Part shown: in pieces, positions 596 through 57,600 of the stretch | How the letters are laid out: each line of letters opens with the position of its first letter | Numbering within the stretch: position 1 is the first letter of the stretch | Source of the DNA: Botryllus schlosseri | Lineage: Eukaryota | Direction of reading: 5' to 3' | Assembly: GCA_051294905.1 (NCBI GenBank) | Contig: CM119372.1 | Coordinates: forward strand, 12,898,001 to 12,962,000 | Length of the DNA: 64,000 nt | Position numbers and translations under genes: made by a program | Notes under the pieces: model-generated | Database searches by the model: none | What the model was told of the DNA's origin: nothing | Seen by the model: only the letters and a program-made list of their open reading frames with translations

Positions 596-32443
<31,848 letters not shown>

Positions 32444-32810
32444 GTCCTCAATCAATGGGCTTTATTGAAATATATTAAGCTAACTTTACATCCATAGTTC
32501 AATATACACGCCCTTCCTCAATTACAACGTTTATTAGGCGGCGTTTAGGCCTAGAACACACAGCGTTTCAAGATATTGTGTTTACGGGTTGTATTTTCTT
32601 GGTTTGTTTACGCTCGATAACCTCCAACCCAATGTGCTATCATGCGTGGCCTAATATAGTCACTGATAATCAAAAACGATAATATATTTTCGGACAGAAA
32701 GCATTATTATTGTTTTATCATCATCACGGGTAATTTACGAAATTCATCGATACTTCATATTATGAAAGGATTAAGTTTCTCATATTCCCCTCAGATTAAA
32801 ATATTCTTAC

Positions 32811-33166
32811 AGACAAGATAGCGCAATGGTGAAGCACAGCAATTTACAACGTTGCAAATTGCTATGGGTGAAGCATCTTGATCGGTAGGTCGTGGATTCG
32901 ATCCACTGCCGGGTCAGACCAAAGACCTGATTTGAAACACTGGCATACATGACTTCCCCGTTGGCGCTCATGCATTACTGGGATAGCATGAAGGGGTGGT
33001 GCAAGACTTGAGACTGTATCTGCACCTTCCTTGTCCAGCGGCATATGCACATCATTCACTCATGGTATGAATATGCACAGATCGTGTGAATCTATATCAT
33101 GAGTCGGTGTATATGCCGCAGAAACATCAAGGACAAAAATAAAACTACGTCCTTTCCTTTCCTTTC
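32811..33166 (+). mobile_element. tRNA-derived SINE candidate
   Basis: A-box-like tagcgcaatgg, B-box-like ggattcgatcc and a (ccttt)n tail. An inverted partial copy of its 3' end lies at about 33510-33607. Confidence 0.65.
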
Positions 33167-33737
33167 ATAAGGTAAATAATAAATATCCGCCTGGTGTCAC
33201 TATAGTGTCAGTGAAGGAATGACCAATCTAAACTAGTAGTTTTCACTCTCACCCAGTGCTGTAATCATAGCCTTTATAAGGCTATAAAGGCTATGCTGTA
33301 ATGACTCGAGTCATATCTCGACCCGAGTCACGGTTTCCTGATGACACGACTTGACTCGAGTCATTTTCTTAAAGTTCGGATATGACTCGAGAGTTGAGAC
33401 TCAGACGGCCTCTAGATCGACATTTCATTGTAATTTCGAAGAATAGTAAAGTAACCACACTGGTACTTGAAAATGCGACCAGAAACTGGTAAAAGTTAGG
33501 AAAAATAGTAAGGAAAGGAAAGGAAGTAGTTTATTTTTGTCCTTGATGTTTTTGCGGCATATACACCGACTCATGATACACATACACGCGATCTGTGCAT
33601 ATGCATAGTATATTATAAATGCGAACCATTCGATATCACCAAACAGAGGTATAGTAGTAACGATATGCAGTCGCGCTTTATTTCAATGAATAGCACTCGC
33701 CCATCCACGTCTATCATTTATAAAATAACCGATATAG

Positions 33738-34103
33738 TAGGCTTACCATACGTCCTCTTTTAAGAGGATTTGTCCTCTTTTTTGAGTTTTTTGAAAGTGT
33801 CCTCGGAGGACGCCCTTTTGTCCTCTTTTTTGAGATTTTGTCCTCTTTTTTGAAAATTTAGGTCAGATTTAGAGCAAATTGCGAGTGATATGCTGCAAAT
33901 TAGCACAGAAGTGACGCTCTGGCGGGTATTTCGGAGTGAAAATGGTTATTTTAGCTCTGAGCGAAAAGATGACCTTTTTTTTAGTCAACCGATCGCAAAG
34001 TGGGAAAAATTCACCGGTTTCTGAGAATTCTACTCCGGTTTTGCAAGTTGCAAATTTCTGAAAAAGTGTCCTCTTTTTAGATTTCCAAAATATGGTAAGC
34101 CTA
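33738..34103. mobile_element. hAT-type MITE with tgtcctctttt repeats
   Basis: TIR taggcttaccata / tatggtaagccta; perfect TSD cgatatag. Confidence 0.9.
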
Positions 34104-35189
34104 CGATATAGTATCGATAGAAGTCTACTGTGTTTTGTACATCCATTGAATTAGTGCACGACATCTCGAGAGAACTCCATCTGAGTCGTTCGGCCGCGAC
34201 GCGCGCGCGTGTGTGTGTACTGTGTACTACAGCCGTACTCTACAAAACACTATGATTCGAACACACATCTCACTGCGGCGACATCCGTGATTTCGATTTC
34301 TACCATCATCCGTTTTCCTGTATTTACAATATAGCCTAATAAGCCTATCAGTCTAATTTCGCGTCGGCTTCGCAGGTCGCCTAGTCCTCGTCGCCCACGT
34401 CAGTTTTGAAATCCAGCTAAGTAGCCTACTTATTACATCGCATTGTATCTTGTAAATTGCATTGTACGTTGTGTGTCTTGAACGGATGAAAATGTCAAAA
34501 AAATGCTGATTCAGTCGCGTCGTTTACGTAGCTCGCAGAGCCTCCGTCAAGCTCGTTTTAGACGTCGTTATTTTATACGTACCTCACTAGTCACTACAAC
34601 TTCGGTAATCGGTTCGGCATCGATGAAATACTTCCTCATTTGTTAGTTTCGAAAATACGAGGTTAACAGTTATTGGTGGGTACTCTTGCGAGTATAAGAC
34701 GGAAAAATCACAGTATAGAATCTACATATCAGCAGAAACAATGTCTAAAAATGAATGTAAGTTCGATTTTGATTTATATACCTGATTTATTGGACTTAGA
34801 TCGGCTACACCCATGTGTTGGGCAAACGTTTTAGCTCGAGGGCCGCATTCTGCATCTGAATCCATTCGCGGGCCGCTGACAGACTATGGTAAAATTGGGA
34901 ATGAAGGCCAAACGCAATCTTGTTTGATTATGTAGTGACCTAAAGACATGGGGATTATATGTGGATATCTGTTTAAAACAATTGAATAGTATATTCATAC
35001 TGAAATATGCCCGAATATTTTCGGCTGACTCTCGTCAAGGGTAATCGTCAGCAACTGGTAGAGAAGTGGATAGAACATTGTTTATCAACAATCGTATCAC
35101 CAAATATGACGTCACCGACATGACATTTACAATGATCGAGGCGAAGATATTGCTCAACCTGAATGAACTATTTTTACATGGTACACGAA

Positions 35190-35400
35190 CTCGTTCTGTG
35201 TTGACACAAACTAGGTTGGTGTGTTTTAATAAAAGTCGACTCCAGGCACACAAATGAAAGTGTGACCGTTCTCTCCCGACGACGTGAAACCTGTAGTCTG
35301 GATATTTTTTAACACAAACATAATTAGGCCTATGCAATAAACGTTTGCCAATGTCAGAATTCATGATCTTTGCCTGTCGTGAAAAGGCAAATTAAATATT
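35190..35400 (-). mobile_element. Penelope-like retroelement relic (GIY-YIG endonuclease C-terminus)
   Basis: SDIGKRLLHRP...YRFHVVGRERSHFHL, then after a frameshift LESTFIKTHQPSLCQ, resembling the SAIG.HL...F.I...LEA..IK...P.LC pattern. Confidence 0.65.
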
Positions 35401-36308
35401 GATTTGATGATAAACGCACACACGTCAGAAACATTAACGAGATTGTATAACCTGACCTACCATTCTCAAATACCACGTGACGATTTCCATGTCAAATGAT
35501 TCAATTCAACGGTTGCTACTATCGATCATAACCGAGCTGTTCCGAGTTCCGACTGCGGCCTGCAATAACAGTGGTATATGGGTAATGGAAGGTATACGAC
35601 TATATAGCCTGCGTGCGTGCGATTGCGAGAAGCATCATTCGTTATGGTAAAATTTAATGTTCCCCGATGGTCCTAAAGTTGCCCGTGCTATTAAGCAGCT
35701 GTAAAAGTACAAGAAACGCGGATGGAAGGTGTAGCCACCGAAACTCAACCAGTAACACAAGGCGTGTATTGTCGGGGTATCCTTCCTCCGACACTGCGGA
35801 AGCGAAACGAATCTAATGCAGTTATTTTCTCAATATCGGAATAGGCCAAGTCATACTATGGTAGGTGTATGAAATCTGTGAATGTACTTCTCCAGTTCCT
35901 TACAATAAAATGTTAAAATGTAGGCTATATAAATTGTATGGCCACGCACACAGATAATGTACTCCACTTACGTATTTCAGCCAGAGCATATGACAAGGCA
36001 AGGCTCTATAAGACCGAAAGTCGTTTTTGCAATATATGTTCATAAATGAAAGAACCAGCGGAAGAGTACTAGTGACGTAGGCAGAGGGGTAAAATACACT
36101 GCTACGTCGTTAAATTTTTGTAACCTGGTAGTCGTGACGTAGTTTTCGCTGGTTACGTCACCATCTGCCCCTAACAACAATTCAACACTTTCGAAGTGTT
36201 CAATATGACGAGTGACAACGCATAAGAACAACAGTGGTGCGGCGAACTGTGAAATAACCACAATTAAGATCATGATTCCAAAACCAAAACTATTGTATTT
36301 CATTCTAG

Positions 36309-36392
36309 ATAGCTTCATAAAAGACACGAAAGGAAATGTAAGTTTGAATTTAGGAGGAAACTCAAGAATGGAAATGAAAGTTACCAGCAAAG
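36309..36392 (+). CDS. Candidate upstream exon of the ubiquitin-like gene (84 nt, phase 1 to 1)
   Basis: ttcattctag|AT...AAAG|gtaagg, open frame SFIKDTKGNVSLNLGGNSRMEMKVTSK, phase-compatible with exon 43149-43316 and similar in composition. Confidence 0.4.
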
Positions 36393-37731
36393 GTAAGGTG
36401 TTGATGCAAAGTTTCACCACGCTATTTTATGCTACGTTATGTCATTCACATTTCACAATGCTGCAGAGCAGTGGTTCCCAAACTGGGGTCCGCGGTCCTG
36501 TTGGGGTCCGTGAGACATTTCTAGTACCGCTACGGACCTTCCAAAAAATTCACACGATCCAGAAATTGTGATTTCTGGAATATGAAAATTGCAGGCGACT
36601 TATTTTCTGAACCAAACTAGATGGTGGCCAAAAATTACTTAATTTGTCAACAAAAAATAGAGTATTTTGGTGCAGAGTTAACTTTAGTCGCGCTTCGCGT
36701 GATTTATTGTCACTATATTTCTTGATTTTATTGTGTGTATGCGCAATGCGCATGCGCACTCTCGAACAAAATACGCATAATTTTGCAGAAATAAGTCTAA
36801 CTGTATTCGCAATTATGAGAGTATCGTTTGAGGCCATTGGGATGCTTTAGTGTAGAAGTGCAATGCATTTCAGCGCTGACCGTTTCCTATCCTGGAAGCA
36901 CCAAGACATGTGAAGGTTCGGTCAACATGCGACTCCACGAAGTGCACTGGCAAAAAGATCAGCGGTGATAAAACCGTGCCTCAAAATGATCACCGCATGT
37001 TGGCCGAACCTTCGATGTTGATATGTCCAGTCACCGAAACAGACGGGCACCGAATAGTCAACTCGTGGAGGAAAATAATGTTTCCCGTGTTGAAAAGCAA
37101 TTTGAAAAGGATTTTTTTGGTCTGGTAAATGTGACCGATTCCGATATCTTTCGATTAGCGACAATAACTACCTTCACGAAATAACAGCATGCTTCAACAA
37201 AGTGATTGTTCACACCGACACGCCTGAATCTAACACTCGTAAAACTTATGACGTCTTAACTGTGAGGCATGAACATGGAATAATATAATTACTTGACCTA
37301 AAATTTGGAGGACATTGGTTCCACCGGTAAATGTGATCATGTGCCCCCAGAGAGGATAATAAGACTCATGCAAGACCGAACATATTGACAAAATTGAATA
37401 CTTACCCGGGGCCTACGATACTTACGGCCTAATATGGCACATTACACTTGCAGGATATAAGAGGCCGACACTCCCAAACAGACATCACGATTGACTCAGC
37501 GATTGTTTTACTTTGCTGGTCGACAATACTAAATGCCTCCCATCTTGAAGCAAAATGCACTCATTTCACTCTGCGAGATCTAGCTAGACGGTTGCATCTG
37601 TTTATATGCTGCTGTATTGACCGTCTTATACTTATAATACGAGGTAGGGTGCTGTGAAGTTGCGATTGCGCTATTCACATTTGGAGGCAAGGTTTTCGAG
37701 CTATAGTCGCTAAGTTAGAATTATTATTTAA

Positions 37732-39162
37732 CCCTTTGTAACCGGCCGGCCTACTGACCAAAATTTTACTGCATCCACATAAAAAACGATAAAATGTCAT
37801 CCATATGGCTTAAATCGACGCCCAATATATTGTCGTAAACCTGAAGTCGACGCCTAGCGGTCTGAGATACTCTCACGGCTCAGACGCCAGAGGGAATAGT
37901 GTTATGCGAGAAAATGTTCTCGATTTCTTGAAAATAAAATGAAATTTTGTTCTTTTTTTATCTCCTGACGTCATACCTAGGCCCTTTTATTAGTATATGA
38001 CCACCTGATTGCCTTCCGCATGAATCTCTACGTTCCAACGAGACATTACATGCTTCTATAGCGCTTCATAGCCCAGCGCTACGATCTTGGAAAGGTAGAG
38101 ACGATGAGCACAATCACGCGGCCGCCGCCGATGAGTAATCTATTACGTAATCTCGTATTCTCGCTGAAGGCAACGCGCGTTCAGCTCTACATAACACAGT
38201 GACTGCCTTGGCAATTCTGCCTGTAGTATGCAACTCCATGCTATTGAAGTGTTATCAACCCCAGTTGCTTGTTATATGTAACTTGCAACTGCAAGGGATC
38301 CGTAAGTATACACTTATTGCCTTATTCGACACTGCCCAGTGCCCATATACGCTCGGGAAGTCATTTCACGTGATACATTGCTTTATTTCGCATCAATTTG
38401 AACTGTATTCTACACGGCTAATGTTCCATGTATGATCAACAGTAGTCATAGAAGCCAACAGTAACTTCGTGTGCCATCTAAAACAGATATATAACTGCCT
38501 CTATATGATGTTGTTATCACAGGCTCGGATACAAAAATAGCCTAACTCGCACGCTTATTTGTGCGGTGTTAGGGCTGGCGTCGGCTTTCTTATACAAAAC
38601 TAAGTTCCATGATAGGGATATTGATGGATATGCCTGGATAATGGCTAACCATATGTATAATTTGCTATTGCCTGAAGCAATTGTACATCTGTTTGAAACC
38701 GCACCGATTCAGGTCATCTTACGCAGCCATGATTTTCACGTAATAAGGTATGCTTCTTTCACGTCAATTTGAAACATCTTCTACGTGCTAATCTTCGATA
38801 TAAGGACTTTCATAGAATAGTATGACCAACAACAAGTCATAGAAGATAATTGTAATCGGTTATATGACGTCTAGAACGGAAGATACAATGGTTTATATTT
38901 CAGGTGGTCATTGACGCGAACATCATCACAAATTCAATTTTGCGGGAAACATTTTTGCGTGTTCAATCTGCATTTCAAGCAGGATACACATTGCAACAAT
39001 AGGTTATACATGATCTGATGCATGCGTATTTATAAGAGCTATACATACAAACCGATTGCAATAGTTTATGACCAATACAGGTCTAGCTATCTTGAATTAA
39101 ATATCGACTCCTCTGTGTTAAACAGTCGCGGTCTAGTATACTAGACCGCCGGTCGCAAAGGG
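37732..39162. mobile_element. piggyBac-type non-autonomous element
   Basis: TTAA on both sides; termini ccctttgtaaccggc / gccggtcgcaaaggg; no transposase ORF. Confidence 0.85.
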
Positions 39163-39437
39163 TTAATGATGTCACGATTAGCTATTGCCGTAGTAACAAC
39201 TCTGTACGATTGCAGTGAAGGTATGTTTAGGAGCCGTTTTGACCATCCGGTAGCATCTAGGTAGGTAATTATGTAGCTGGAAATAATACTTCATGTTGCA
39301 CTAGTTGCAGTATTAAACAAACTAATATCGGCTAGAATTCATGGTGGTATTTTATGCGGCATTTATGACAGTGAATTTTGACATATTATATGTATGCTTG
39401 ACGATGCAGGCTTGGCTTAATGTATAATTGAACGTTA

Positions 39438-41060
39438 ATGGTCAACAAATGTTGTGTTTATGGCTGTAAATCTGGATATTTAACTACTGAACAAAAAGTT
39501 TTGTCGTTTCACTTTCCATTTGACGATGCGGAGTTACAAAACAAATGGATATCTTTTGTGAATGGGCGCGATTGGAAACCAACTCTCAATTCTGTAATCT
39601 GTGAATTGCACTTTGAATCAAAGTACATCACCGACTCATGCTTGCGAAAACGACTACGTTTGGAGGAAAAACCAGTCCTAGTGAAGGCACTACCAGAGAC
39701 CGAAATTACAGGAACTTGGTTAGCAGAGGAATTGCTGGATTGCATTGCTGCTCTCAATCGGCATGGATTTGCCGTTCGAGGGCTTGTGTCGGATAATCAT
39801 TCTTCCAATGTAAAAGCATTTGGATTAATGAGACAAAAATACTCTGGAAATGATGAGTTCCCTCTTCATCATCCATCCTACGCCAAGAAAACATATATAT
39901 TTTTCGATACTGTACAGTGTACGACGTTATGTGAGTTTTTCGTTGATAAATCGCGGATTATCCACCAATCAAGGATAATCCGAGAAATTTCAACGAAAAA
40001 CTCCAATAACTCCGCTTCTACTGGTCGGAATTGACTCAAATTTGTTTTGCAACGTCTTTGAAGACAGCTCAACAATTTCATGGGGTTGGCAGAAAAATTT
40101 GGAATTTTTTTTTTCAATTTTTCATAATAAATTAAAAATTTTAATTGGATCTGCGGAGGCCTTTACTGGTTGGAATCGAGTTAAATTTGGTGAGCAAGGT
40201 TTTCTACTGCAACCTGTCGATATAAGAGGTGACCGGCTTGAATCGAGGAAAAAAAGTTATTTTTGAACAGCCCTAGTGTACGTCTTGTAAAGAGCATATG
40301 AAAACATTTACTCCGAGCCAAGAAATTCATTTTTCCTCGATGCTCATTCATCATCGCCTGGTGGATTCGTTGCATGGGGCGATCTTCACAAGGTCAGGGA
40401 ATATGATGATAAGCTGGATTCGAATTTGTGTAAAGCGCCAAAATTGACATTTTTGCCTCATCGCATCCAAGCAAAATCAAACAGAATGTCAACTTAGCTC
40501 TTGCTCCATTCCATGAGTCAACTATTGCAGCTTGCAAAAGTTGCTTGCCTCACAGGGAAGATATGTCTTCATTTTTGAGTCTTACTAATGCTTGGTGGAC
40601 ACTGGACAGTGGACAATCATCAATTTCTGTCCCATATTTTCGGCAAACCCCTAGGCCAAAGCAGTGGTCTCACAAGATGCAAAAATGGATTCTTTACAAG
40701 ACTTTGCTAATTGGCTTGTAAAATGGAATGGATATAACCCCCAGAACTATTGTCTATCAACTGTCAAAGCAAACCTTGAAAGCTCCGATTGAAACCCTGC
40801 AGCTCAGTCACTACTTATGAAAGATCCGTTTGAAAGAAGGTTCTCGCGCTATAGGCAAATGAGTGAGGGAGATTTCTGATGGGTTTAACAGAAGTTACCA
40901 ATTTTGAAAAGATAATTCTGCTTCGTTTCATCCCAAAAATTGAGGTAAACTACTGGGAGCATGATATTGGTGTTTCAGGTTTAACTCATTTTGATCATTT
41001 CAAACAAGTGATTGCAGATGTGGCGATTGAAATTACCGACTTACCTCTAAAAATATTTCG
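39438..41060 (+). pseudogene. Degenerate THAP9/P-element-like transposase, internally deleted and interrupted by a MITE fragment
   Basis: N-terminal THAP zinc finger (CCVYGC...FP...W...ICELHF), then VRGLVSDNHSSN and FFDTV. After the insertion, broken frames give LVKSI*KHLLRAKKFIFP, FHESTIAA and DPFERRFSRYRQMS. Confidence 0.85.
39925..40275. mobile_element. Right-arm fragment of the palindromic MITE family, inserted in the THAP transposase
   Basis: aataactccgcttctactgg...tttttgaacagcccta resembles the right arm of 47565-48227; flanks gtgtacga / gtgtacgt. Confidence 0.7.
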
Positions 41061-41717
41061 CGCTTCGCGTTAATACAAAATAATTGCTCGTTGATTTTTC
41101 AAACCACTGCATGGTTAGTTGGTAGCTATCTCGATCGCGAAGCGCGTAAAACCGTTTGTAAATGGGGTGTATGAAGGGTAGTGATGAAATTGCGCGTAGA
41201 GGTCGGAGGGGGCGGCACGCATCGTCGCCCATAGGTTAGGTTGATCACGCCATGAACAGCTTGAAGTGGAATTTGAACCGGCTGATTCACGATAATATGG
41301 TTGCGTTCTCAAAAACGCAACCAAACATAGTGGAGCTGGTCGCAGAAAATCAGCTATACACCCGTTACATTGACACCATAAATCCAAGATGTTGTTTTGT
41401 GTTGATTTGGTAAGGGACCGTGAGTAAGTTAAGAAATATTGCCATGGGATCATTTGGGGAATTTTCTTGAATAGTTTGGAACCGTCCGCTGTAGAGCTGC
41501 AGAGAGGTATACGGGGTTGTTGTTTGCTTGTGTGATATTCATGGTGCTTCGACTACATTAGTAATGGTCATTTTGCACCAGGCGGATACTCTTTATTTTT
41601 TGTATTTACCGACATGTAGCACGGCCCATTTCTAGACTTTTTATAAGACACTGCTTACGCGGAGACGTGACGAGAAGGAGCCTAGAAATAAACCTCCAAC
41701 ACTTGGGCAGGAATTCT

Positions 41718-41797
41718 GGAGTCGCCCTCGGTCGGACTCGGACCTGCAACCCATTGCTATTGCAGCTGTGGATCATACCACTACGCTATGTCGCCAC
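41718..41797 (-). mobile_element. tRNA-like SINE head (degenerate)
   Basis: Reverse strand reads gtggcgacatagcgtagtggta...caggtccgagtccg with A- and B-box-like motifs, but no clean cloverleaf. Confidence 0.45.
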
Positions 41798-43148
41798 AAT
41801 ACGAGGATGTTATAAACCCCACCTTCCTCGAGTGTGAATGAGTGATGTGAGAATTCTTTCTCGATTATCATGTTGGAATTGTCATGATTTGATTTGCTAA
41901 TCACGAAAGACTGACGGATCAAGTGACTAGTTGCGGAGTCCTTTACAACGTAACTAGTAGCGATATTTCGCCATTCAAAATACTGTTTCTATGGTCGAGT
42001 ATGCGAGATAATAATATCATTGACCAATTGGTGTCCTCCTGCTAAATCATGTTTGTATGTCGTGTTCGTGTGAAACATCTTATGTGGTGGTTACGCTATT
42101 TCTATGTTATATAGACCACTCTGAGGAGCTGGACAATTTTGCGACTTGTGACACGGCCTGGGGGTGGTCAAACTAGTCACGGATGGTTCTCAAGTAGAAG
42201 TATAACATTGACGCCGTAAATATTTACTCGTTTGCAGGTATAGAAATAGCTATATCCAAAGCATGGCAAAACTGCTTCAGGGGGGAGTAGAAAATGAAGA
42301 TTTGAGAAGTACTCAAGTGAGTACTCTCAAAAGGTAGATTTGGCAGATTAAGTAGTTGATCGAGGGGGGGGGGCTACTTTCAAAATGGTTGGACCCATCT
42401 TCTCGACTGACGCAAAATGACCAATGCCGCTACATATTTGTGCATGCAGCAATTTTCGAGAATATATTCAGATATCAGGATACAGGCTTATTTCACCCAG
42501 TCGTTATGACAATTTCACTCAAAACCGAGATGGGATCAGATCCCGAGATGACTGTCAACTTCAAAAAATCCAAAGTAATAAAACTAAGCAGTTTCGCCTT
42601 AAAAACTGCTGGGTACAAGTGGAAGCAGTAGAAAAAACAAAAGTAAGTAATGCAAGTTAGCAAAACATATTTAAGTACTCCCGTAAAGTAGAAGTATAGT
42701 TCATTACGGATCAGATCACTGATCGTGTTTACTCCGGACTCAATCAAAATTTGTACTCGACACTTTCATAGAACCCTTGTTACGACTCCCTTAGCGATAA
42801 AAATGAATTTCGAGTGCGACCCTCACCCACATCGTACGTAGCCATGTGAGCTAAAGGCACGCAGTACAATCTTACATATTCGACGTCGTATATTTGTTCG
42901 TGATGTCACAAAGAATAGATTTTTAGCGTCACGTAACTGTTCACTATATCCGCTTAAATTTTCACGATGGCCGCGTCCGTAAAAGGCTAAAATATAATCC
43001 GCACCGTCGGAAACGCTACCTACAGAGTGACCACGAATCGAATTTCGAGTTTTCGAAACGGCTGAGAAAAAGAAGGACGATGATATGTTCGACTCCCATT
43101 ATTTCTCGATTATTTCGAAGCCATCTTCTATTTTCGACTTTCATTCAG

Positions 43149-44099
43149 ATAACAGTTCCTCGATAACGGCTGGGAGAGACGTAGACATCAAAGTTGGCGG
43201 AGATTTCAATTTGGGATCTCAAAGCCGCAAAAATGATTTTCGTGGTGCCTCGATTGGTGTAATCAACGAAGGTACTATGAACAGTAAGCAAGAAGGCACC
43301 ACCACGAATATCGGCGGTAAGAAAAATGGACAGACTGATGACGATCCAAAATTATAAATCTATGATAATACCTGGAATAATGCCACCTTTTGTTTAACTA
43401 TTATGTATCATTCGTTATATCCATAATTGATTATACTACCAGAGGAAGTTTAAGTATAGTCATCGTTGGCACTAAAATTTCAAGAAGTAGAAGTAACGGT
43501 ATTTGCCGAGGCTCTACGTCGATAATGCGACATTGTATGCTTGCCGATGTTGAAGTACCATGGATATGGGCTATATGCAAGTTCAAATCGCTCAAAAACT
43601 GATTTCTTTGATCGAGATTCCGTGGCAAACCCTCAGTCCTTGTTACTAGTGATATGCAAGTTCGGAATGAATTAGACTACAGACTCCGGATTCAATAGAG
43701 TTTCAAAATTCAAATATTTCAGTTGCTGAACAGTCGAATCTTCCAGAAGCCAATGCTCCGTCCGTATCCGAAAACAAAACCACCGCTGAGTCCAAACAAG
43801 AACAAATCCACAGTGAACGCGTCATCAATTTCAAAGTCCGGTTACTAACGCTTAAACGAATTATTCATCTTCGTCTTCCCGACTCGTCTCTGGTACAATC
43901 GGTCGTCGAAAAAATTAATAAGGACGAAGGCGTGGATGTAGCTCTGCAACTAAAATTGGATGACGGAAGCGATAAAACTCTTGACCATAAAAAGAGACTG
44001 TGCGAGGAGAATGTGGCGGATGGATCCATTTTGAACGCTCGAGACATTGCGATCACCGGCGCGACGTCTCGTGCCACCGGAAGGAGAGTTTTGGCTTAG
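43149..44099 (+). CDS. Spliced gene: G/N/S-rich exon (43149-43316) plus terminal exon (43723-44099) with a ubiquitin-like domain; 5' end uncertain
   Basis: Pyrimidine-rich acceptor tcattcag|43149, donor G|gtaaga at 43317 and acceptor atttcag|43723 join in phase 1. The last exon is open to TAG at 44097-44099. From 43821 it reads VINFKVRLLTLKRIIHLRLPDSSLVQSVVEKINKDEGVDVALQLKLDDGSDKTLDHKKRLCEENVADGSILNARDIAITG, which aligns by eye with ubiquitin. An in-frame ATG at 43085 is an alternative start. Confidence 0.72.
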
Positions 44100-45973
44100 G
44101 CAAACTTGAACATAAAACAGCGAATTTAGCAGCAACAAACACTGTCGTTTTGGATAACGGATATGTATTCCGTAGCAACCGTCAATCATGTAAAGTGTAA
44201 TTCCGTAGGCTTATCCACTTGAGTATTTCTGCGCGTTCAGTATGTGGGTATAGGTCATTCACGGCGTAACGTGACTATATTGCTCGCAATCACAAGATTC
44301 GGTGTCCTAAACATAAAATATACGCGAAAACTAAAAAGTACCAAATTCATATCTCAGTTCCAATGCAGTCACTGTTCTTAACATTTCATTGACTTCTTAT
44401 ACCACCTCTTTATGTCGCTTGTCTTTTAATGTTGTCTTCTGTTACTTTTGACACAGTGTGCATGCCGCCTCTTTACTTCGCGTAGAGACGGTTTCGACCT
44501 CTTCCTATCTTTTCTTTGTTTCGCAATCTTGTGGTGTATTGATTTGATAAAATTGTTAATAAACCGAACTGAACAATTGCAGGTTTGGATGATATTATGA
44601 TTTGACATATGAGTACGGTCGCGTTTAAAACAAAAGACGTGGTTTTAAATCAATGGTTCTTAACCTTTACTAACACGTAGAACACTGCAGACCTTCGCGG
44701 AACCCCGAATTTTCGCCGAGAGTCACAAAAACCAAAATCTGTCACCTTGCACATCCAACTAAAGACATCTAATACGTTACTATACATTGCTGGAGCGAAA
44801 AATGAACTGTGCACCAACAGAGTGTTAAATGAACAAAACTATTGAAATAAGTTTTCACACAAAACGATATCATTAATGAATCGCTGACCTCACTGCATAT
44901 GCAGTGTCGCACGAAAAGCCCAGACGAAGCAAGTAAAGTCAAGCTTACGGAAATCGACTACAACTGACTCTGACGAGGACGTGTGCGAGAGAGATTGGAT
45001 GAGAGTGTGACTGAAAGTCGTCCGCAAAAATCGTATCACAAGCAAAGACCAAGCAAAAGGACAATATTCCTGATCGGGCGCAAATGACCTTATCGGCGAT
45101 AAGCGCCAAACAATTGTTCAATAAAATACAAATACAAATGACTGAATATTTATTGCAAATTAGCGTGTGGAGCGTAGCGGCGAGCGTCGGCGTCGGTCCC
45201 ACCGTTGGAGATTATTGTGGGCTTCTCGTCCCCAGTGTTGCTGTTCTTATAGCGACAAATTAAAAATAAAAAAGACCCGATAAAGAAAGAAAAGACCAAA
45301 AAATAGCTTCTCAAAGGACCGAAGAAGGAAGATTAGCATCGAAGAAGACTGCGTGACATCGGGCACTAGGTCGAGATGGATATCAGTGTAAGAGACCGTA
45401 ACTGGTCGTTCGGCATCTTTACATCGCATTGTGTGAATTGTATATCATCGCATTGTACATTATGTGTGTATTTCGTGGGCGGATGAAAATATTTCCTGAC
45501 GCTGATTGACTTTTGCTGTTCCCTAGCGAGGCATCACCTTGGAAAATGACATCGTATTGTTCCGACGTAATCCGCAGCGTGATACCAATTGCTTTACAAT
45601 TACATTATAATTATTGGAGATGGAATTGACACTTCGGAGAGACTGGATTTCGAATTCGAATCCCAACCTCCCTACGCCATTGCACACGACCTACCACCAC
45701 AAGTCATAATGGCTGATCGAGTCCTAAATGTCTGCAACTAACGATGACCAAGGCGGGCGTATCATTACAAATCATATGAGTGTGTGTCTTGACGTCCATG
45801 AAACCCCATGGCGAAAATCAACTCTGATTACGAGAGTTGAATTCGAGTACTTGAATTGCATTGCCTGGACGTTCCAGCCCATGGTGTAGGGTTACCCAAT
45901 ATTACCATATAGGGTTACCATATATCTCCTCCCTTTTCAGAAATTCGAAAATCTCCTCCGAGAACGCCTAGAT

Positions 45974-47112
45974 CAGGGCCGGCCAACCCGTGGCCCGCGA
46001 GAAGGTTTTGAGTGGCCCGCGAGGTAATTTCCGAAATTTGTAATATTATCAAAAATGGATTGCACAGATTGTGAACTTGCAAGGCCAACCAAAAATTTGA
46101 TTAGTCTGACCGCAACACTTGAGATGTAATGACTAAAATATCAGTTCCGACGCATTGGCAGATCCATGAACCGGTCACATTTTGGTAGATATTCGTACAC
46201 TACAATAAAGCAGAATAATTTGCGATAGATTTATCAAAAGTAAAAATGTTCTACACGCTTCGCGCAACATGTTGTCACTTGATTTCTTGCTTTTAATATT
46301 GTTACCCCTTTGTGAAAATGAAAGAGCTCCTAATGTATCAGATTGAGTCTAACTATATTCGCGATTACGAGACAAAGTGTCGTTCAGCATATGCGACCTT
46401 ACGTTTGCGCTTGCAGAAAGTCCGTCGACTATGAAACCTATATAGGCACAAAACGATTGACGCATGTTGGTCGAAGCTTTCGATATCTATATGTTCAAGC
46501 GCCGAATAGTCCAGTCCTTACAAACTGAGCCCTGCGATATGCAGCAGGCCCGCAATACAGTCAAGTGACCAGAGATGAGCGGATTTGAAATTTCTATGTC
46601 CTAATCCAATCCAAATCCGAACCTTCAAATCCAAATCCTAATCCATAACTTTTTCATATTCAAGTCCATGTCCAATCCCAATCCGATTCCAACTGGAAAT
46701 TCAGAAAAAATACTAATTTATGCAATGGAGGGATTCGAAAATTTTCTTTCACAACCAACGATTCACCTGATTCAAGATAACTTAGTAACCATAAGTACAT
46801 TAATAACTGATCTGAATAAAGTTCGTCGCCATTCGCCACACGACATTTCAATCTGCCAGAAAATAAGTAAATCCAATCCAAGTCCTAATCCGTTCTGAAA
46901 AAAATGTCTAATCCAAATCCAATCCAAATCCGACAAAATTTCACAAATCCTGTTTTTTCAAATCCTAATCCTAATCCATGCTCATCTCTGCAAGTGACGA
47001 TATTATTGACCTACGAACTTCGAAAAATTTTCGCGCTTGGCGCGGCTAGTGGCCCGCGCAATAGTTCGTCAATCGAATGTGGCCCTTTGGCTGAAAAGGT
47101 TGGCCACCCCTG
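45974..47112. mobile_element. hAT-type MITE hosting a nested MITE
   Basis: TIR cagggccggccaacc / ggttggccacccctg; TSD gcctagat / gcctatat; internal tggcccgcg repeats. Confidence 0.82.
46570..46990. mobile_element. Nested hAT-type MITE with (aatcc)-rich repeats
   Basis: TIR cagagatgagc / gctcatctctg; perfect TSD caagtgac. A related end is visible at about 63420-63515. Confidence 0.9.
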
Positions 47113-47564
47113 GCCTATATGTTCTCCTTTTGGGCAATTCGTTCTCCTTTATACCTCTGACAGCCAGGCCACTGGACAGGCAAAACTAAAAAGACGCCAT
47201 AACGCGAAATCCGTAATGTGGATGTTGGAGCTGGTCTTAAGGTAGTTGGACTCTACTAATGACATTTTTTAGTCAACACAGCAGTATTAATATAAAGTGG
47301 GTAATTCGGAATTCGAGTTGAAAAAACCACCATTTTTTAGTCAGAACAAGAGAATTTCCGGGTCAATATTTACAAATCAGTAGTTTTCTAGTGCGGTAAT
47401 CTAACTTTTATGATTTGTAAAATGTGTCCTCCTTTGAGGATCCCAAAATAGGGTAACTCTACATAATGCACATCGTATTACATGTGCTTAATTGCCGTTC
47501 TGGATAGCGAAAAATTTCCAGGCTACAGCTCTGTGATATATTCTTTGCTCCGCTCATTGTTCAT

Positions 47565-48227
47565 TAGGGCTCTTCAAAAATGACTTTTTTTCTCAATTCG
47601 TACTGGCTACTTGATAAAATTGTTAGGTTACCTGATTTAAGCCTACACGCAAAATTTGGTTCAATTCCAGCCAGTAACCGCTTTGCTACAGGAGAAGTAA
47701 GTTTCGATTTATTATATAAAGATAAATAATAAAACATTTGAAAATTTTCTGTTCACCCCATGAAAGTGTTAGGCTCTCTATAGAAACGATGCTCACCAAA
47801 TTTGGTTCAATTCCAACCCGTGGAAGCGGAGTTATTGCCGTCGAAAAATTTGGATTTGAATAAAATAGTATTTACGGTGACCGATTTTTTGTTTATTTAT
47901 TAAAGTTGTGCTCACCGTAAATACTATTTTATTCAAATCCAAATTTTTCGACGGCAATAACTCCGCTTCCACTGGTTGGAATTGAACCAAATTTGGTGAG
48001 CATCGTTTCTATAGAGAGCCTAACACTTTCATGGGGTGAACAGAAAATTTTCAAATTTTTTATTATTTAATTTTATATAATAAATATAAACTTACTTCTC
48101 CTGTAGCAAAGCGGTTACTGGCTGGAATTGAACCAAATTTTGTGTGTAGGCCTAAATTAGATAACCTAACAATTTTATCAAGTAGCCAGTACGATTTGAG
48201 AAAAAAAGTCATTTTTGAAGAGCCCTA
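47565..48227. mobile_element. Near-perfect palindromic (foldback) MITE
   Basis: Arms 47565-47880 and 47912-48227 are inverted repeats with few mismatches around a 31-bp loop; perfect TSD ttgttcat. Confidence 0.95.
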
Positions 48228-48645
48228 TTGTTCATGTGCACTTCTGCAGTGCATGTAATAAACCCTGACGTGGTGTACAGAATATAATCATATTCATTAC
48301 AACACTTTGGTATACGTGCGGAAGACCAGCTGATATTACAAATATTGTAGATAGAGCAATTGCTTTTAGATAGCTTTATTTCTCGACGACACCTTTAGGC
48401 ATTAAGACAAGAAGCGACATGCTTTCTCTTGTGACCATAACAATAATAAATCAAAATAAATGCACCCCTAATGGGTGGGCTCATGGGCTGTCACACGTAT
48501 ATACGGTTACAAATGAACTCTCTCGACCGATACATATTGACATATTTTAGTAACAATGATATCGTGGACACTGTACTATTAACAAATGTAGTGTAGCCTC
48601 TACATACAGTATGTGTAGTCTCACAATTCGAGGAATGCACTGTAA

Positions 48646-51600
48646 CTAGACATTTCCTATCATTTTCTTCATTTCCGATTCGCTTCCCAAAACCGCAACT
48701 TTTGTGTCCAGTCTTGACATTGAGGCGTTTTCACATTTCTGTAGAAGATTCACGATAGGCTACTTCATACATATAAGAACGCTCATGCACTATTATTGAA
48801 AATATGTATCAAATGTTGATAGAATGAAGATAATGAAGTTCGCTTAACACCAAGTTGTTCATGAGTTATCATAACCGGTGAGATGCTAACATTTCATCGT
48901 CGCAGCGGATCGGTCAATTTGTTTCTAAATGGCTGAGAATGTAATCATAGACTTATTTGACAACACGCATATCGCAATGACAATTGAAACTATCTCGCAT
49001 CAGTGAGAAGTGTGCCGCGGTTGGTTAAACGGTCATGATCACAGTGGCAGTTTGTAGGGATGGTGTGAACGTGAGGTTCACGTTCGCGTTCTGTGTGTGA
49101 ACCTCGGAAATTTAGAGGTTCGCGTTCACAACAGAACCTTGGTAGGTTCTGCACTGTGAACTTTTTGGTAAATTGTAATTTTCACTCCATTATAAGATCT
49201 TTGGCTCAAATTTATTGCATTTCAACTATACGGGCCACTCCATGCATGGTGCTGGCAGCATAAAAAATCAACGCTTAAAGAGCATGCACCATGCACCTCG
49301 ACAACCTTAAAAGTTTTAGTTGCTTTGTTACAAATATTTTCTCGGAATAACCAACTTTCCGTTTGTGAATATTTAGTGACTTTCTGCTGTGAGCTTGACC
49401 CGCAATCACACAACATCACGAGCGATATACGTAGTCAGCGAATGATGCTTATTCAACCAATCAATGACATTGATATCGTCTTCTGATGTAAAAATCGAAC
49501 GGGCGTACGGGGTCAATCTTGACTTCATATGTTTATTGTATCATTAAAACCAAATCCGTGCTAATAAGGTGCTTGCTACTGCTGCATAACTTGTTGTTGG
49601 TGGTGGTATCGGTAGCGAGTATAGAAACCCGTTGTACACTCTGCTCAATATCAATGTAGCAATACTCCGAACACATTGTCCGGTCTGGCTAAGACCGTTA
49701 AGGCGTAAGCTTATATTCCTTGGTAAGTCCTCGTCGAAATTGTTGACAAAGCGACGGAATGTATTGATTTTACGCAATTATTATATCCTTTGATTACCGC
49801 TGTTGATACATTTAGCGACGTTTAAAACGTCAATATGTGCTTCAGCATTGTGGCATTATGTGGACCGAGTCTTCGCTAGGTATCGTGTACATTAATATAG
49901 GCGATCACTTCATTGGAAGATAGGGTTGGAATTAGCAATATGACGTCACGTGACGTCACGAGGTTCACGTTCGTGTTCACACAGAACCTTTCAAAAAGGT
50001 TCGCGTTCACACGAACCTGAACCTTTCAGAGGTTCACACCATCCCTAGCAGTTTGTTTGAGCCCAGGTTCTCATTATCGTGTACGTGTCGGGGGTTAATT
50101 TGGCCACCTCCACGCCGGTTTCGCCGCAAATGCAGTACACTTAGAAGCCCAGTATGTATAAGTGGCCGAGCTAGACAAGTCGACAGCAAAGAACCCGAAT
50201 CAAAGGGTAAAAGTCGTCTAAAAGTGTTCGAAAAGCAAAGAATCCAATCCGATACCACGCCGTATCTAGGGCTACGCAAAATCGAGTATCACTCATTATG
50301 ACGTCACCGTGACCACAGTATCGATGAGGTATTATATTCAATAAGATAATACCTTTCGAAATGTTTCACCGGGAGATGTGTATACGACGTAGATTCCCAC
50401 AACCGGAATGCTCAGCATCGACATCAAGCTCAGAATCCAACCCACCCCGTCTCCCCACCACGGATAAGTGTAGCTTCCTAACGTTAAAGGCGTGTATTGG
50501 ACGCAGCATGTTATGAAAATGATCTGTGAGAGAACACAAACTTGCAAGTCGCCGATATTGTCAATTCCAAAGCCTTTTTACCAAGCAGAATGAAGGCGTT
50601 ACGTATTTGAAACAGTACTTGAACGCGTTTGACGGATAATAGCCAATCATGGATTTCACATCGTCCCAAAACCGATCAATCCCGTATACCCACCCGACTG
50701 CCATACTCTCGAATATGGCTGCCCACAGCAAAGCGATGCCACTTGCGCCATAGCGATTTATTATTTCGAAAATGTAAATCCCATTCTGTAAAAGAAATAA
50801 CTCTCGCTCATACTGAAGCAGGTCAGCTCGTGGCGTGGTATAGCCTATTACTTACATTCGCAAACTGAGGTAAACTTAATACAACCAAAGTCAAACAGAA
50901 TCCAGCCCTCCAGATCTGAGTACCTTTATGACTGAAGTATTGCGGCCAGTAATCCGCTAAAGCTGTCACGCTGCCTTCAACCACCGTGAACTGGATGTAA
51001 ATAATGACATATATATTCATATTCACCGAACCATGCTGAACAGCGTACGAGAACAAATGTAAAACTTACGACGCCGTCGATAGCGAGGAATGTGAGTCCT
51101 AGGAAAAACGCAGCGGCCCAGGCTTGAGGCGCAGGTAAAGTATTAAAAGCGTTCGGAAACACTATAAACACTAGCTCGGGACCTGTAACCAAAACGTAAT
51201 ATTTTAATTCAGATCATCTAGGGGTCGTACTCGTAACCCTGAATAACACTCGTGTGACTTTGTAAATAGTAGTCAATAGGGATGGTGTGAACGTTAGGTT
51301 CACGTTCGCGTTCTGTGTGTGAACCTCTGAAATTTAGAGGTTCGTGTTCACAACAGAACCTTGATAGGTTCTGCACTGTGAACCTTTTGGTAAATTGTAA
51401 TTTTCACTCCATTATAAGATCTTTGGCTCAAATTTATCGCATTTCAACTGCGGGCCACTCCATGCATGGTGCTGGCAGCATAAAAAATCAACGCTTAACG
51501 AGCATGCACCATGCACCTCGACAACCTTAAAAGTTTTAGTTGCTTTGTTGCAAAAATTTTCTCGGAATAACCAGCTTTCCGTTTGTGAATATTTAGTGAC

Positions 51601-54600
51601 TATCTGCTGTGAGCTTGACCCGCAATCACACAACATCACGAGCGATATATGTAGTCAGCGAATGATGCTTATTCGACCAATCAATGACATTGATATCGTC
51701 TACTGATGTAAAAAATCGAACGGGCGTACGGGGTCAATCTTGACTTCATATCTTTACTGTATCATTAAAACCAAATCCGTGCGATTAAGGTGCTTGCTAC
51801 TGCTGCATAACTTGTTGTTGTTTGTGGTATCGGTAGCGAGTATTGAAACCTGTTGTACACTCTGCTCAATATCAATGTAGCAATACTCAGACTCCGAACA
51901 CATTGTCCGGTCTGGCTAAGACCGTTAAGGCGTAGGCTTATATACTTTGGTAAGTCCTCGTCGCAATTGTTGGCAAAGCGACGGAATGTATTGATTTTAC
52001 GCAATTATTATATCCTTTGATTACCGCTGTTGATACATTTAGCGCCGTTTAAAACGCCGATATGTACTTCAGCATTGTGGCATTATGTGGACCGAGTCTT
52101 CGCTAGGTATCGTGTACATTAATATAAGCTATCACTTCATTGGAAGATAGGGTTGGAATTAGCAATATGACGTCACGTGACGTCACGAGGTTCACGTTCG
52201 TGTTCACACAGAACCTTTCAAAAAGGTTCGCGTTCACACGAACCTGAACCTTTCAGAGGTTCACACCATCCCTACTAGTCAACACCGTAACGAGGGTAAT
52301 ACGAAAAGTTGTTTGATATGCCGAGGCTTGCAGTTCAACATTGCACTTACCAGACTTGGACAACTAGAAACTTTTCAGTTTTTCCAAATTAGATTAGAAT
52401 TAGATTACTGGAATTTCGCTCTAATTTAGTGAAATCAGACAACTAGAATCATCTAGTTGACCAAGTCTGGCACTTATTGGTTGCACTTTCCTCGCGGCCT
52501 AGTCAATCATTCTGTTCAGTTGGCGTATTTTGTGATTATGATAAGTTATACAGCTTGACCTATGAAGTAGCTAAAGTATTTCACGTTCTACCTATGGAAT
52601 ATTGGCATCTTATCGTTTAAATTTGGTCAAGATAACACAGCTTCGGGATATGAAGTGTTGTAGACACAATTCCTATTCCGAAGTTGATATTGTCGAATTA
52701 AACTTTTACACTCTATCCTACCTTGTAAATTATCTCATTTGAATAGCTCTCGGCGGCAGCTTAGAATATATGTACGAGTAGATGGCCTAAGATCACAGCC
52801 GTCGTAGGAACCTCCTTGACAGGCCTGCTCCAATCATAGTACGCGTAGTCATATAGACCGTACCGACGACTCAAATAAGCGAGAGCATTATACATCAAAA
52901 CCACGACGTTTTACCAATTTCAAAAGTTTGGGAATCTTCATCATTGTCTGTTGTCGGCAACGCATACACAAAGGGCCATTCGCACACTTTTATAAACCAG
53001 CCTGGAATCGCAAATTACGTTAAATCGCAGACATGAATATAAAACCAATCCTTTATCGTTATCGAGCAAACTGACGTTAGCATTAGGACTGGACAGTTGA
53101 CATGGACGCAATGATTCGAGTGCTCAAATCTGAATCGCGAAATATAGTACTAATGATTCGAGTCGAGTGGTGAGAGATGATTTTTTTCGAGTACTGAAGT
53201 TATACGCTATTTGTCACTTCCACACCTACAAGGCTGTGGACCCCGATTTTTCGTATCGCAGCATACGAAACATCCAGTCTTGTAGTGCAAAGCTACGCAA
53301 GTACGCATGTTAGTGGAAATTATACATCTGTAGAGTCGTGTTATACAAAACCAAACACCAAAACTTTGCCAAGAGTTACCCAACGAAGACGGGTTTATGG
53401 AGTAATGATGATAGCAAGCTGAAATCTTCAGCAGCACTTGAAGGAACTGCTGCACACTGCACTGACATTATATCTGCCTGATTTCAAACACCTTGCAGCC
53501 CAGGTGGGGAGGCACTGTATCATTCGATAGCCTACATGACATTGTGACGTAATAAATTCGTATTTTTGTGTTGTTGCCCTTTTTAAAACTAAGATTTTTG
53601 ATGTGTGGCTTTCGCAAGAAGCAGGTCTTCCCACCCCTCAGATAGATGATTGTTGATATGCCTCTACTGCGAACCGGACACTTTAAATGTTTTGGGCAAT
53701 TTAAAATTTGATGTTAAGGTAGATAGTCTCGCGGCTCACCTCCATCAGCGATGTCTGAAACATTTTTGCCTTGAATAAACGCCATGTGACCGAGGAAGGA
53801 GAATACAACGAATCCAAAGAAAAGTGAGCTGAAGCAACAGGTCATCACAAAGAAGTACGAACTCCTAAATGCGATTGAATTTGTTTTATCAATACGCAAA
53901 TACTACAGTTGTCTTCATACTTGTAGCAATCGAAGGAAAATTTGTTGTAGCTGCCCATGCCGTAGAAGCACCCGTTACACACTGCCAAGGAGAAAATGAC
54001 CTGAGTTCCGCCGTCGAGCCAAACCTGTTGGAGGAATATACGTATAGAATAAATGGGCAATACGATGCAGAAGTAGACCATGTTCAATATACCGCCGGTT
54101 CCATTAGTTTTGTTACGTTTGGAGTAATGTAGAATCGAATGCCTTCACTCGCGCCTTCCAACGTTATCCCTCGTATGAAAAGTGCAAGCATCAGAACGTA
54201 GGGTGCGATTACAGTAACATAGGCAGCCTGAAAATACAAGTCACTTCGTTATGCACCATGGCGGCAGTGTGTGCCTAGATAGCAAAAGGAAATAAAGACA
54301 TGCAGTGGGTTTCTACATTACTCTATAATGTCATCGTCTCTTTTCTATGATACCACTTCACAGTGTCGTCGCCATTTCACTATAATCCAAAGCTCTTTTA
54401 CACTTCTATTAATTACACTGGTCAACAAAATGAAAAAAAAATTTTAGGCAGAACATCTGAGAGCCGTTTCTGGGGTTTTTTAGGTTGTTGATTACGAATA
54501 TCACATTAGTTTTGTCAGATTGGCTCTTTGTCAGAAGATATTCATACCCCTAAAAAAGCCCAAAATTACTGTGTTTACCCTTAAATATTTTTCACTTGGT

Positions 54601-57600
54601 ATAGGAAGAAAATCGTAGTTTTTTCTCATTTTATACTGCACATAAATAACTAATTGACTATGAAGAACCCTCATGTCATTCTCAGTCATTCTATCAATAA
54701 TAACATGACATGATGCGAAATATTTGTTTGTCAAAAAAGCAGTTTGTCAAGCCTAAAAATTGTACTTTTGCACAACGGAAATACATACTCTCCTGTATCA
54801 ATTGGTCATACTACCAAGAATAAAGAGGAGTATAAAACTATAAAATTTGTCCTTGGAAGGCTTAACTACAATACTCATATGCGTCTCCTTTCTTTTGACT
54901 GGTAAATGGATAATTTTCCGCTGAGTCAACAAAGTGGGTATACCTAGTAACCCTATCAAATGAGAAGCTTAAATATGGTATCCGGTATATTCGAATACCG
55001 ATGAAAGATTCCAATTTCACATTAGGAAGGAGTTCACTGCATGTAATTTCTCCTAAGACGTAGTAAATATAACTTTTTAGAGGATTGTAAAGCACCCAAC
55101 CACAAACAGTTGGTCTGAAAATTCGTATCTGCATATCGAATACTTAAGCACAAACATGAGCATAAAAGTTCACTTCCTGTTCAGAAATCTGGATCTATTT
55201 CCTGATCATCTTGTTGATTAGCAAAGGGAGGCGTTCTACCAAGACATCAGAACAAAAGAAAGATATCAGGGCAGATGAGATGAACAATTGAACATATTAT
55301 GTCAGACCATTGCCGGAACCTTTCAAGAAACTGCACTAAACAGCTTACAGGTAAAAATCTTACAACAAAAACAATTATGATTTAAAATATATCAATAATA
55401 TTATATTCCCACTGATTATTTCAAATTTAAAATAGGTGGTTGACGTAAAACTGATTGAATTAATGCCCCGTTATTTGAGTATCTAGGTAAATACTTATGT
55501 ACATGACTGGAGTTTATTTATGTACATGATATCCGTGAAAATCTGTAACGATGATGAATATATAACCTCTAAATATGGTGCTGTTGCTGTATTTTGATTT
55601 AAAAGAGTCTTCTGTGTGTAAAAATAACAAGTAGATTGATTTTCTAAACTTTATAATACGACTGAGCCGATTTTATATCTAGTCATTACCGCGAAAATGG
55701 GAGATTTTGGTCAAAATAGCCCCATGGATTATCTCCACAACAAGAGCCAATTTGATAAATCTAAGGTCGTATTCGGAATCAGTGCCCTTCAGAACCCCCA
55801 AAACCACCCTTACTTTGTCTGCCTAAAAATATGTGTTGACCAGTGTTTTCTCGCTCAATGCGCTTATCTATATCGTATCTTACGAGACTTCAATGTTTCA
55901 CGTTGTATCAATGGGTGGCTGGTATTTCTGTGAACAAGATTTCACAAGACCCCAACGATAAGTTATGTAAATGTCGCATTGCAATATTACCATGTTTCAC
56001 AAATGGTGGAGGGTTGCGATGCGAATGCGATGTTTGTGGGATAGGAATAATTGACCAACCGTCCCATTGCGTCATGCCTTTGATTTCAGAGAGAGGGGAT
56101 AGAGGCATCCTGACATTTAACGTCCTGGCTGCGGTAAAAATTGTTCTTATTCTGAAACGGTTCACCTGTCATGCTGCGAGCAGCGCAAGGCTGCAACACT
56201 TTTAAAACCACCGCGCTGCATATTGCATTTGTTGCAGTCAGAGGAGAATTTCTGATCTTTCTGCTTGTTCTTGTGCCACTTAAAACCCGGTATCCACGCC
56301 ATTTCTCAATTGATAACCCGCTAGAATTGTCTAATGATTGTGAGATCGGTAATTTATCTCGTATGAGGAGCTTGATTGATATATCCCAGAAGACTCTGTC
56401 AATTACTGCAACTGGTCGAAGAATTGGTATTCCGTTTGGATTGATGGCTTCCCGGATGTCAACTGATCGCTGCCAAATCCTAGACAACATAGGTGGATGT
56501 AACTCGGATGATTGCCACTTCGAGTCAAATTCATAGTCCGGATACCCTTTGTGTGGTCATTCGTAGAAGGTTCGTAGTTGATGCTGTTATTACACCATAA
56601 TCGTGGATCGCCTCAAGGCGAAAAAGGACATGATCCACTGGCCAGTGTATTAGCACTACGTTGCATATGTATCAGGTTTGAACATGGAAACCCGAATGTC
56701 GGCGGAATGATCTTGAGTTTTGACGCCCATAATTTTCAACGAGACGTTGCAAATAAACGTCAGACTGGCGATACAAAAGCGATGAACCCCGTTTGTGACT
56801 GACATGCGGCGCCCGCGTGATTAACGAGAACGTTGTCTGTTTCTACGCGGCAGTCCAATGGCACTGCTGCCGATTTCTAGGCGCACCAGCCTATCTAATG
56901 GGTTATCTACTGACGATACGTTGTAATTCAAGCAACCTTCCAACGAGTTTGATAAGGGACAAGTTCCACGTCAGAGATACGATCGAAATGAAGGTTGCAC
57001 TCACCTCACACGTACCAAGTAACAGCAACATAGTCCAACGTAAGAAATAACGTCAGATTTACAATTAACAAACAAACGAAATAACGTGAGATTTACAATT
57101 ACTTTGGCGACATGGTAAATAACCAACAACTGGTGATTCGCAAACGCTCTATATAGCGACGAGAGCAGCCAATCCGAGAAGGCTTAATTACAACTGATTG
57201 TTAAAATACGAACGCAAACATAGGCAGATAACTGACATGCGCAATTGCCAACACTCCCCCATTTGACCAATACCACTCAAAAGAATTTTATCCATGTAAT
57301 AAGTGTCAAGATAACGAATGAATTACTTGAAACGATAGACAGGTGTTCAGCCACTCTTATAAAGTGACGAACCTTCGTTGGAACAGAGAACGCAGTTTTA
57401 ACGTGAACAGTTTTTTCGGGTGGGTGACTCTGGATATCGGAATAATCTTGTCGCGTTGGTGATTGCGTCTGTTATTTTTTGACTTTTATTTTGCGTTCGT
57501 AATTTAACTATCACTCTCGGAAACAGAATCCAAGGATATCATACTGTTATGGAGCAAAGGTTCTCTATTCTGGAATACTCAAACTATTTTCACCATATTT

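Follow-up and report, generated by a model that had tools for sequence, protein, structure and literature searches.

The window analyzed here is a 64,000-nucleotide stretch of the Botryllus schlosseri genome (assembly GCA_051294905.1, contig CM119372.1), or C2:12898001-12962000 in a labelling in which the 219 contigs of the 495.5-Mb assembly are called C1, C2, C3 and so on. Its positive strand carries a gene flanked by a Hobbit gene and a transporter gene, both on the negative strand. It is a real, expressed and spliced animal gene, and the window shows several signs of animal DNA: GT-AG introns, a THAP element, a Hobbit/BLTP2 gene and an SLC6-type transporter. Its product joins an N-terminal module of short beta-prone units, which recurs at other loci including one in front of a NOD-like receptor (NLR), to a C-terminal ubiquitin-like domain with a predicted beta-grasp fold. 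A first-pass annotation, made from the sequence alone, had described a two-exon gene starting at 43085 that combined motifs related to RHIM (RIP homotypic interaction motif) with a non-canonical ubiquitin-like domain. The terminal exon and the ubiquitin-like domain of that description held up; its start and its RHIM did not.

Transcript evidence came from four runs of four studies mapped to positions 35000-47400 of the window, the raw RNA runs having been selected by species label: two sets of contigs presumed to derive from RNA (X1 and X2), one set of bulk RNA reads (X23) and one single-cell run (X21). None of the runs listed as containing the stretch is recorded as RNA. Expression of the gene was evident in runs of the four studies. 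Four exons form a single open frame of 214 codons, the first being a putative start mini-exon. Its coding part (34741 to 34756) opens with ATG and holds five codons and one base before a phase-1 GTAAGT donor. No other ATG mini-exon in 30000-36309 has a phase-1 donor, and this one parallels the start mini-exon of a paralog on C10, whose splicing shows in an intronless copy on C17. Exon R (36309 to 36392; 84 nt, phase 1/1) has a donor defined by RNA and an acceptor predicted from sequence. The joint from 36392 to 43149 has GT..AG borders and is covered by 46 raw reads with 36 start points in X23, as well as by X1 and X2 contigs. Because this joint skips 43085-43148, that region, formerly taken as the beginning of the gene, is intronic; exon A has its polypyrimidine tract and acceptor there. 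The gene reaches at least 6.8 kb, and probably 8.3 kb, upstream of the finding as first described, and the added exons carry part of the N-terminal module.

Exon A (43149 to 43316; 168 nt, phase 1/1) encodes the shared motif module VGGD...DFRGASIGVINEG, and both of its joints were seen in RNA or contigs. The joint from 43316 to 43723 proved, as proposed, to be in frame and in phase 1 with GT..AG borders. It was present in the contigs of two of the four runs, exactly in X2 and with allele-different letters just before the joint in X1; among the matches listed, no raw read from the two raw-read runs crossed it. At the exon of this joint, X23 showed many differences from the assembly and zero depth in that bin. 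The 377-nt terminal exon (43723 to 44099) is open, in agreement with its first description, and follows a TTTCAG acceptor. It encodes a linker of polar composition (43723 to 43820) that lies outside the match to ubiquitin-like paralogs, the ubiquitin-like domain (43821 to 44045, approximately residues 123-197) and an unstructured tail with the stop codon (44046 to 44099). A probable 3' untranslated region occupies 44100 to approximately 44563, ending near an AATAAA at 44558. The depth of X21 over 44108-44521 was 64.6 on one strand and 0.64 on the other, a pile-up that fits a 3' end near this AATAAA.

Taken alone, the last exon matched no Pfam family, reached ubiquitin only at an E value of 0.4 in a single-sequence search, and was folded from its single sequence with a predicted local distance difference test score (pLDDT) of 44. 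The assembly contains three paralogous exons with 38-42% identity to it, plus a more distant candidate (E value of 2.7). A profile of the four sequences matched ubiquitin variants (E value of 1.5e-4), and the paralogs matched the Pfam UN_NPL4, YukD and ubiquitin models, two of them scoring just above the UN_NPL4 cutoff and the window protein below it. With the four-sequence alignment, the best AlphaFold2 model reached a pLDDT of 75.7 (81-87 at model residues 11-80, <50 at residues 88-102 in the tail) and displayed the strand-strand-helix-strand-strand-strand order of the ubiquitin-like superfamily. The best Foldseek match of this predicted domain was the ubiquitin-like domain of TBCE (E value of 3.3e-6), and VIA-align superposed it on TINCR with a Z score of 11.9 and a root-mean-square deviation of 1.4 Å over 73 residues. 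Profile, paralogs, fold and structure matches thus bear out the likeness to ubiquitin that had been noticed by eye. Since the top structure matches, which include many other ubiquitin-like domains, are tied within 1 Z, no subfamily can be assigned. Atlas matches of the last exon to ubiquitin clusters, at 0.88-0.90, serve as leads only. Protein searches outside the assembly returned a single relative of the domain, the 85-amino-acid (aa) fragment P0001; a second candidate, P0002, was rejected as a low-complexity chance match.

The 214-aa product contains GG only at residues 21 and 50, with none after the last strand, and the C-terminal tail shows no conservation in the three paralogs or P0001. 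On the strength of the model and these two features, the last exon is predicted to form an integral, non-conjugatable ubiquitin-like domain. It shares the beta-grasp fold (Z scores of 11-12, with 15-25% identity) and the lack of a terminal GG with the integral ubiquitin-like domains of the TINCR microprotein (7mrj), TBCE (1wjn), Rad23 and OASL. At position 43987, all four runs carried C versus A in the assembly, changing His to Pro within the domain; the assembled base may be a rare allele. The terminal exon family comprises L002 and L004 on C12 and L003 and L050 on C6. The C12 copies model as proteins of 137-145 aa with a short, G-rich N-terminal exon. In two C12 paralogs, the modelled upstream exon has a G-rich core that resembles the second half of exon A at a level found in ~1 in 10,000 background windows, a likeness first spotted by eye. 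Searched genome-wide, the C12 upstream exon found only itself, which leaves the C12 motif with no shown NLR link.

The N-terminal module spans residues 1-89, contributed mainly by exons R and A. It contains no prolines, 10 asparagines and 12 glycines, with alternating hydrophobic positions. Exon R is one copy of a beta-prone repeat of ~28 residues. It scored 32 against an ungapped profile of five paralog repeats, compared with a maximum of 19 among 89,373 background windows and a level that none of 20,000 shuffles reached. HMMER, given the same sequences, listed no match to it above 5 bits, and exon R found only itself genome-wide. Exon A matched nine other places in the assembly at E values of ≤10, seven of them at ≤3e-4; the weakest match (E value of 7.7, with a stop) was excluded. 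The likeness between R and A is faint. Profiles of R and A had no Pfam or PDB sequence match, and protein searches returned no relative of module A, which is weak evidence in itself. No full-length relative of the window protein was found in protein searches or in a 1.84-billion scan. In the literature searched, we found neither a protein of this motif plus ubiquitin-like design nor NLR motifs of tunicates. The available text of PMC12261475 contains none of the words tunicate, ascidian or ubiquitin; motif tables published as supplements to PMC4262963, PMC9815663 and PMC12261475 may be relevant to the novelty of the design.

Exon A recurs on two motif-only genes, on two intronless copies, at a multi-motif locus on C3 and on one exon ahead of a NACHT exon. 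The motif-only genes (L022 and L021) lie in tandem at C10:26.827-26.836 Mb, where the exon models begin with a start exon and continue through two R exons and a short acidic exon to A, after which comes a stop; by these models, they encode motif-only proteins. The intronless copies (L012/L011) map to C17:2336856 and 2260124; one is open, with a frame of 139 codons, and the other contains a stop. We compared nonsynonymous and synonymous substitution rates (dN/dS) with C10b_r1 left out. The open C17 copy gave a ratio of 0.08 to its C10b parent over 48 codons, so that, judged from codons, it is under purifying selection. These genes and copies are candidates for regulators made of the interaction module only. 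CARD-only and pyrin-only proteins are interaction-domain-only tuners of NLR assemblies; the motif-only genes of C10 and C17 would parallel them with a different module, by analogy only.

The NLR-side exon, C10:25101029-25101250, is a 222-nt phase 1/1 exon located 2.2 kb before a frame-compatible phase-1 NACHT exon, to which it is probably spliced. It matched exon A at an E value of 0.24. Searched back, it found only itself and the exon A of the window, making the two reciprocal best non-family matches. Scored with a profile of the seven other A exons, which excluded the NLR exon itself, it reached 25.3 bits, a genome-scaled E value of 0.008; the next of 9,576 pieces scored 7.8 bits and the best of 20,000 shuffles scored 12.9. 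Because the match was first picked genome-wide at 0.24, the profile E value of 0.008 is the fair figure. A motif common to an NLR N terminus and a non-NLR protein was thereby found at one NLR locus. The ORFs of the window itself contain no NACHT. A complex prediction for exon A (two copies) with the NLR motif, run with alignments unused, scored 0.00, which counts neither for nor against binding.

At the C3 locus (C3:25.398-25.422 Mb), tandem phase-1 exons lie at L016:115-288 and 1309-1398, at L017:1869-, 3952-4122, 6428-6517 and 9382-9489, and at L018:3655-3825. By the exon model, their order is A-B-C-A-B-C-A, with B and C, also phase-1 exons, placed between the three copies of A, and the locus might link motif A to motif B as a multi-motif bridge. 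No NACHT remnant was found in the 50 kb of C3 that was examined. Motif C found only itself genome-wide. Motif B, which has no detectable likeness to R, had 25 further matches. For 5 of them, a listed NACHT follows 5-12 kb downstream on the same strand (the list holding the 94 of 224 candidates that were scored), compared with ~0.04 expected by uniform chance. Eight motif-B matches lie on the positive strand of C1:23.45-24.81 Mb, and the 3 Mb downstream of them contain no listed NACHT. Fourteen kilobases after the C3 motif exons is a phase-1 terminal exon, P0003 (L019:8041-9309), whose polar tail contains the word IHIG once. The exon has paralogs at >30 places, 4 of which lie downstream of a listed NACHT at a distance of 9-33 kb; presumably it resembles ZU5-UPA, and it has no Pfam or PDB match.

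The reading that we favor, with confidence evenly balanced between belief and doubt, is that the window protein evolves fast and acts as an adaptor or regulator that NLR assemblies recruit via the shared motif A and that presents ubiquitin-like domains to partners in the ubiquitin system. We prefer it because the places where the motif occurs, at the N terminus of an NLR, on proteins made of motifs only, at a locus with several motifs and on a protein that also has an output domain, fit the logic of fungal NLR signalling. The gene product would be a cytosolic adaptor or regulator of 214 aa, whose residues 1-89 would serve as an interaction tag common to at least one NLR and the small motif-only proteins. 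Once activated and oligomerized, the NLR would cluster its tag and recruit the window protein by like-with-like stacking of beta-strands, most likely in an assembly of cross-beta or beta-solenoid type, like that of fungal NLR/effector pairs. On this assembly, the non-conjugatable ubiquitin-like domains would be on display and would recruit ubiquitin-system partners, which might either pass on the signal or shut it down. A signalling role had already been proposed for the protein; the recurrence of module A before a NACHT exon supports it indirectly, and the part of that proposal that invoked RHIMs falls away.

In fungi, the fold of a short N-terminal amyloid motif of an NLR is transmitted to another protein that bears the same motif, and a motif common to an NLR N terminus and another protein is how the amyloid signalling pairs were recognized (PMC5485727, PMC7885112). 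In pairs such as NWD2/HET-S and those with HRAM, PP and sigma motifs, a short N/G-rich motif likewise replaces a folded NLR N-terminal domain and is found, there in repeats, on a non-NLR protein (PMC5485727, PMC7885112). The window protein differs from these pairs in having no sequence match to them and an N-terminal motif on the partner. Its partner domain is ubiquitin-like, in contrast to the pore-forming HeLo domain of fungi, and its amyloid state is hypothetical. Pfam and PDB sequence searches with the R and A profiles gave no match to a described motif family of the HET-s/HRAM, PP or sigma type. Ubiquitin-clan Crinkler domains occur as N termini of fungal NLRs, there without a motif (PMC9815663).

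The composition of residues 1-89 is compatible, as composition, with a beta-arch amyloid. An amyloid state of the module, considered on its own and by analogy with fungi, is a tentative proposal that we expect somewhat more readily to fail than to hold. More doubtful still is a whole network in the fungal style with its own non-RHIM motifs, in which NLRs carrying A or B would be bridged by the multi-motif locus and tuned by motif-only proteins, and in which the window protein would coat the assembly with a ligase-free ubiquitin-like array. The proposal bears on how NLRs that lack a death-fold domain might signal, and tunicates have been reported to be without RHIMs (PMC4262963). As a non-NLR protein whose short motif is also found at an NLR N terminus, the window protein gives a receptor/partner pair that is testable with two peptides. 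Should the motif prove to be amyloid, animals would have one more signalling amyloid in addition to RHIM and cRHIM, and its output would be new.

Several observations weigh against the adaptor reading. Module A has been found at only one NLR, whose splice to the NACHT exon is deduced from phase, and that NLR is on C10, so the receptor and partner genes are not adjacent; adjacency is a trait of fungal and bacterial pairs. To our knowledge, RHIM genes are not clustered. The A copies on C3 have EE or GE in place of the motif GG. The enrichment of motif B was calculated for uniform placement, yet both NLRs and B exons occur in clusters, and for 20 of the 25 B matches the list, which covers 94 of the 224 candidates, places no NACHT within 15 kb. 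Residues 1-89 include 12 lysines or arginines and 10 aspartates or glutamates. Two of the five AlphaFold2 models came near a pLDDT of 75, and the other three gave 42-47. Relatives outside the assembly amount to the fragment P0001. Signs of constraint are also slight: dN/dS was 0.26-1.05 for module A pairs outside C10b/C17 and ~0.5 for the ubiquitin-like domain of the window, versus 0.15-0.21 among its paralogs L002-L004. In X23, 12 of the 16 codon differences listed were nonsynonymous (another 548 differences from the assembly fall over the stretch outside the codon listing). Weak selection of this kind fits diversifying immune genes and also drift.

The alternative that survives best, though we judge it unlikely, is that R and A form an ordinary soluble interaction domain, a beta-helix or beta-sandwich, or else interact with a folded partner; amyloid templating would not be involved, and the protein might still be related to immunity. 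Repeats make up 130-140 residues of the motif-only paralogs, a length sufficient for a small solenoid, and the charged residues of the module would suit such a domain. An Atlas search of one motif-only paralog returned nothing from 0.9 upward; its nearest clusters, at ≤0.82, include an autotransporter-like one and are leads only. What the NLR shares with the window protein, however, is only ~30 residues of module A in a polar exon, short for an independent fold, and the lack of a Pfam or PDB match also speaks against a known domain of this kind.

Slightly less probable again is a young exon-shuffled chimera, in which a phase-1 motif exon landed before a ubiquitin-like exon and is now transcribed and drifting with no role in NLR signalling. 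The high share of nonsynonymous differences in X23 would suit this history, as would the dN/dS of 0.63-0.71 between exon A and its C3 copies, whose intron flank is still alignable at 77-80%. The absence of a full-length relative, and of exon A from the other ubiquitin-like paralogs, points the same way. Drift sits poorly, however, with the four-exon frame, which has been retained with no stop among the listed X23 differences, and with expression in runs of four studies. The order start exon, R, A is moreover the same as in the C10 genes despite a dS of >1, which argues that the N terminus is old.

It is very improbable that the window protein is a true RHIM or cRHIM protein coupling to RIPK-like kinases. 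The short hydrophobic-x-hydrophobic-G words that had suggested this (IKVG, LNLG and TNIG) are indeed present in the sequence. The RHIM core tetrad is V/I-Q-V/I-G (PMC12119088, PMC7885112), and even the wider form (I/V)Q(I/V/L/C)G is absent from the spliced product. The module exons matched no Pfam family up to an E value of 10, and the RHIM model PF12721 had no match over its cutoff in the assembly, its three weak matches all lying on other contigs. Solved RHIM or HET-s chains did not match the R and A profiles, and RHIMs and RIPK1 are reported to be absent from tunicates (PMC4262963, PMC12119088). By its sequence, then, the N-terminal module is not a RHIM. The resemblance is one of design: in RHIM proteins, including the RHIM-NACHT protein BF82280 of Branchiostoma, a short beta-prone motif is likewise shuffled among innate-immune architectures, and in amphioxus RHIMs occupy positions where death folds usually sit (PMC4262963). 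The module of the window protein is longer, spanning two exons. A conjugatable modifier, clipped and attached to targets, is equally improbable: the domain is C-terminal and its short tail has single glycines, but the missing di-glycine after the last strand and the unconserved tail led us to reject it.

The 6.8-kb intron between exons R and A contains a decayed THAP-domain DNA transposon at 39432-40718 (Pfam THAP, E value of 4e-13). Downstream of the gene, at 47562-48230, is a near-perfect palindrome of 669 bp whose arms resemble part of this element (40004-40281); by this resemblance, it is probably a non-autonomous derivative. The Hobbit/BLTP2 lipid-transfer gene lies at 1100-30000 on the negative strand, head to head with the window gene. 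Exons of an SLC6 (SNF) transporter occupy 49055-59000 on the negative strand, and a 1-kb direct duplication with 96% identity was found at 49055-50047 and 51277-52274.
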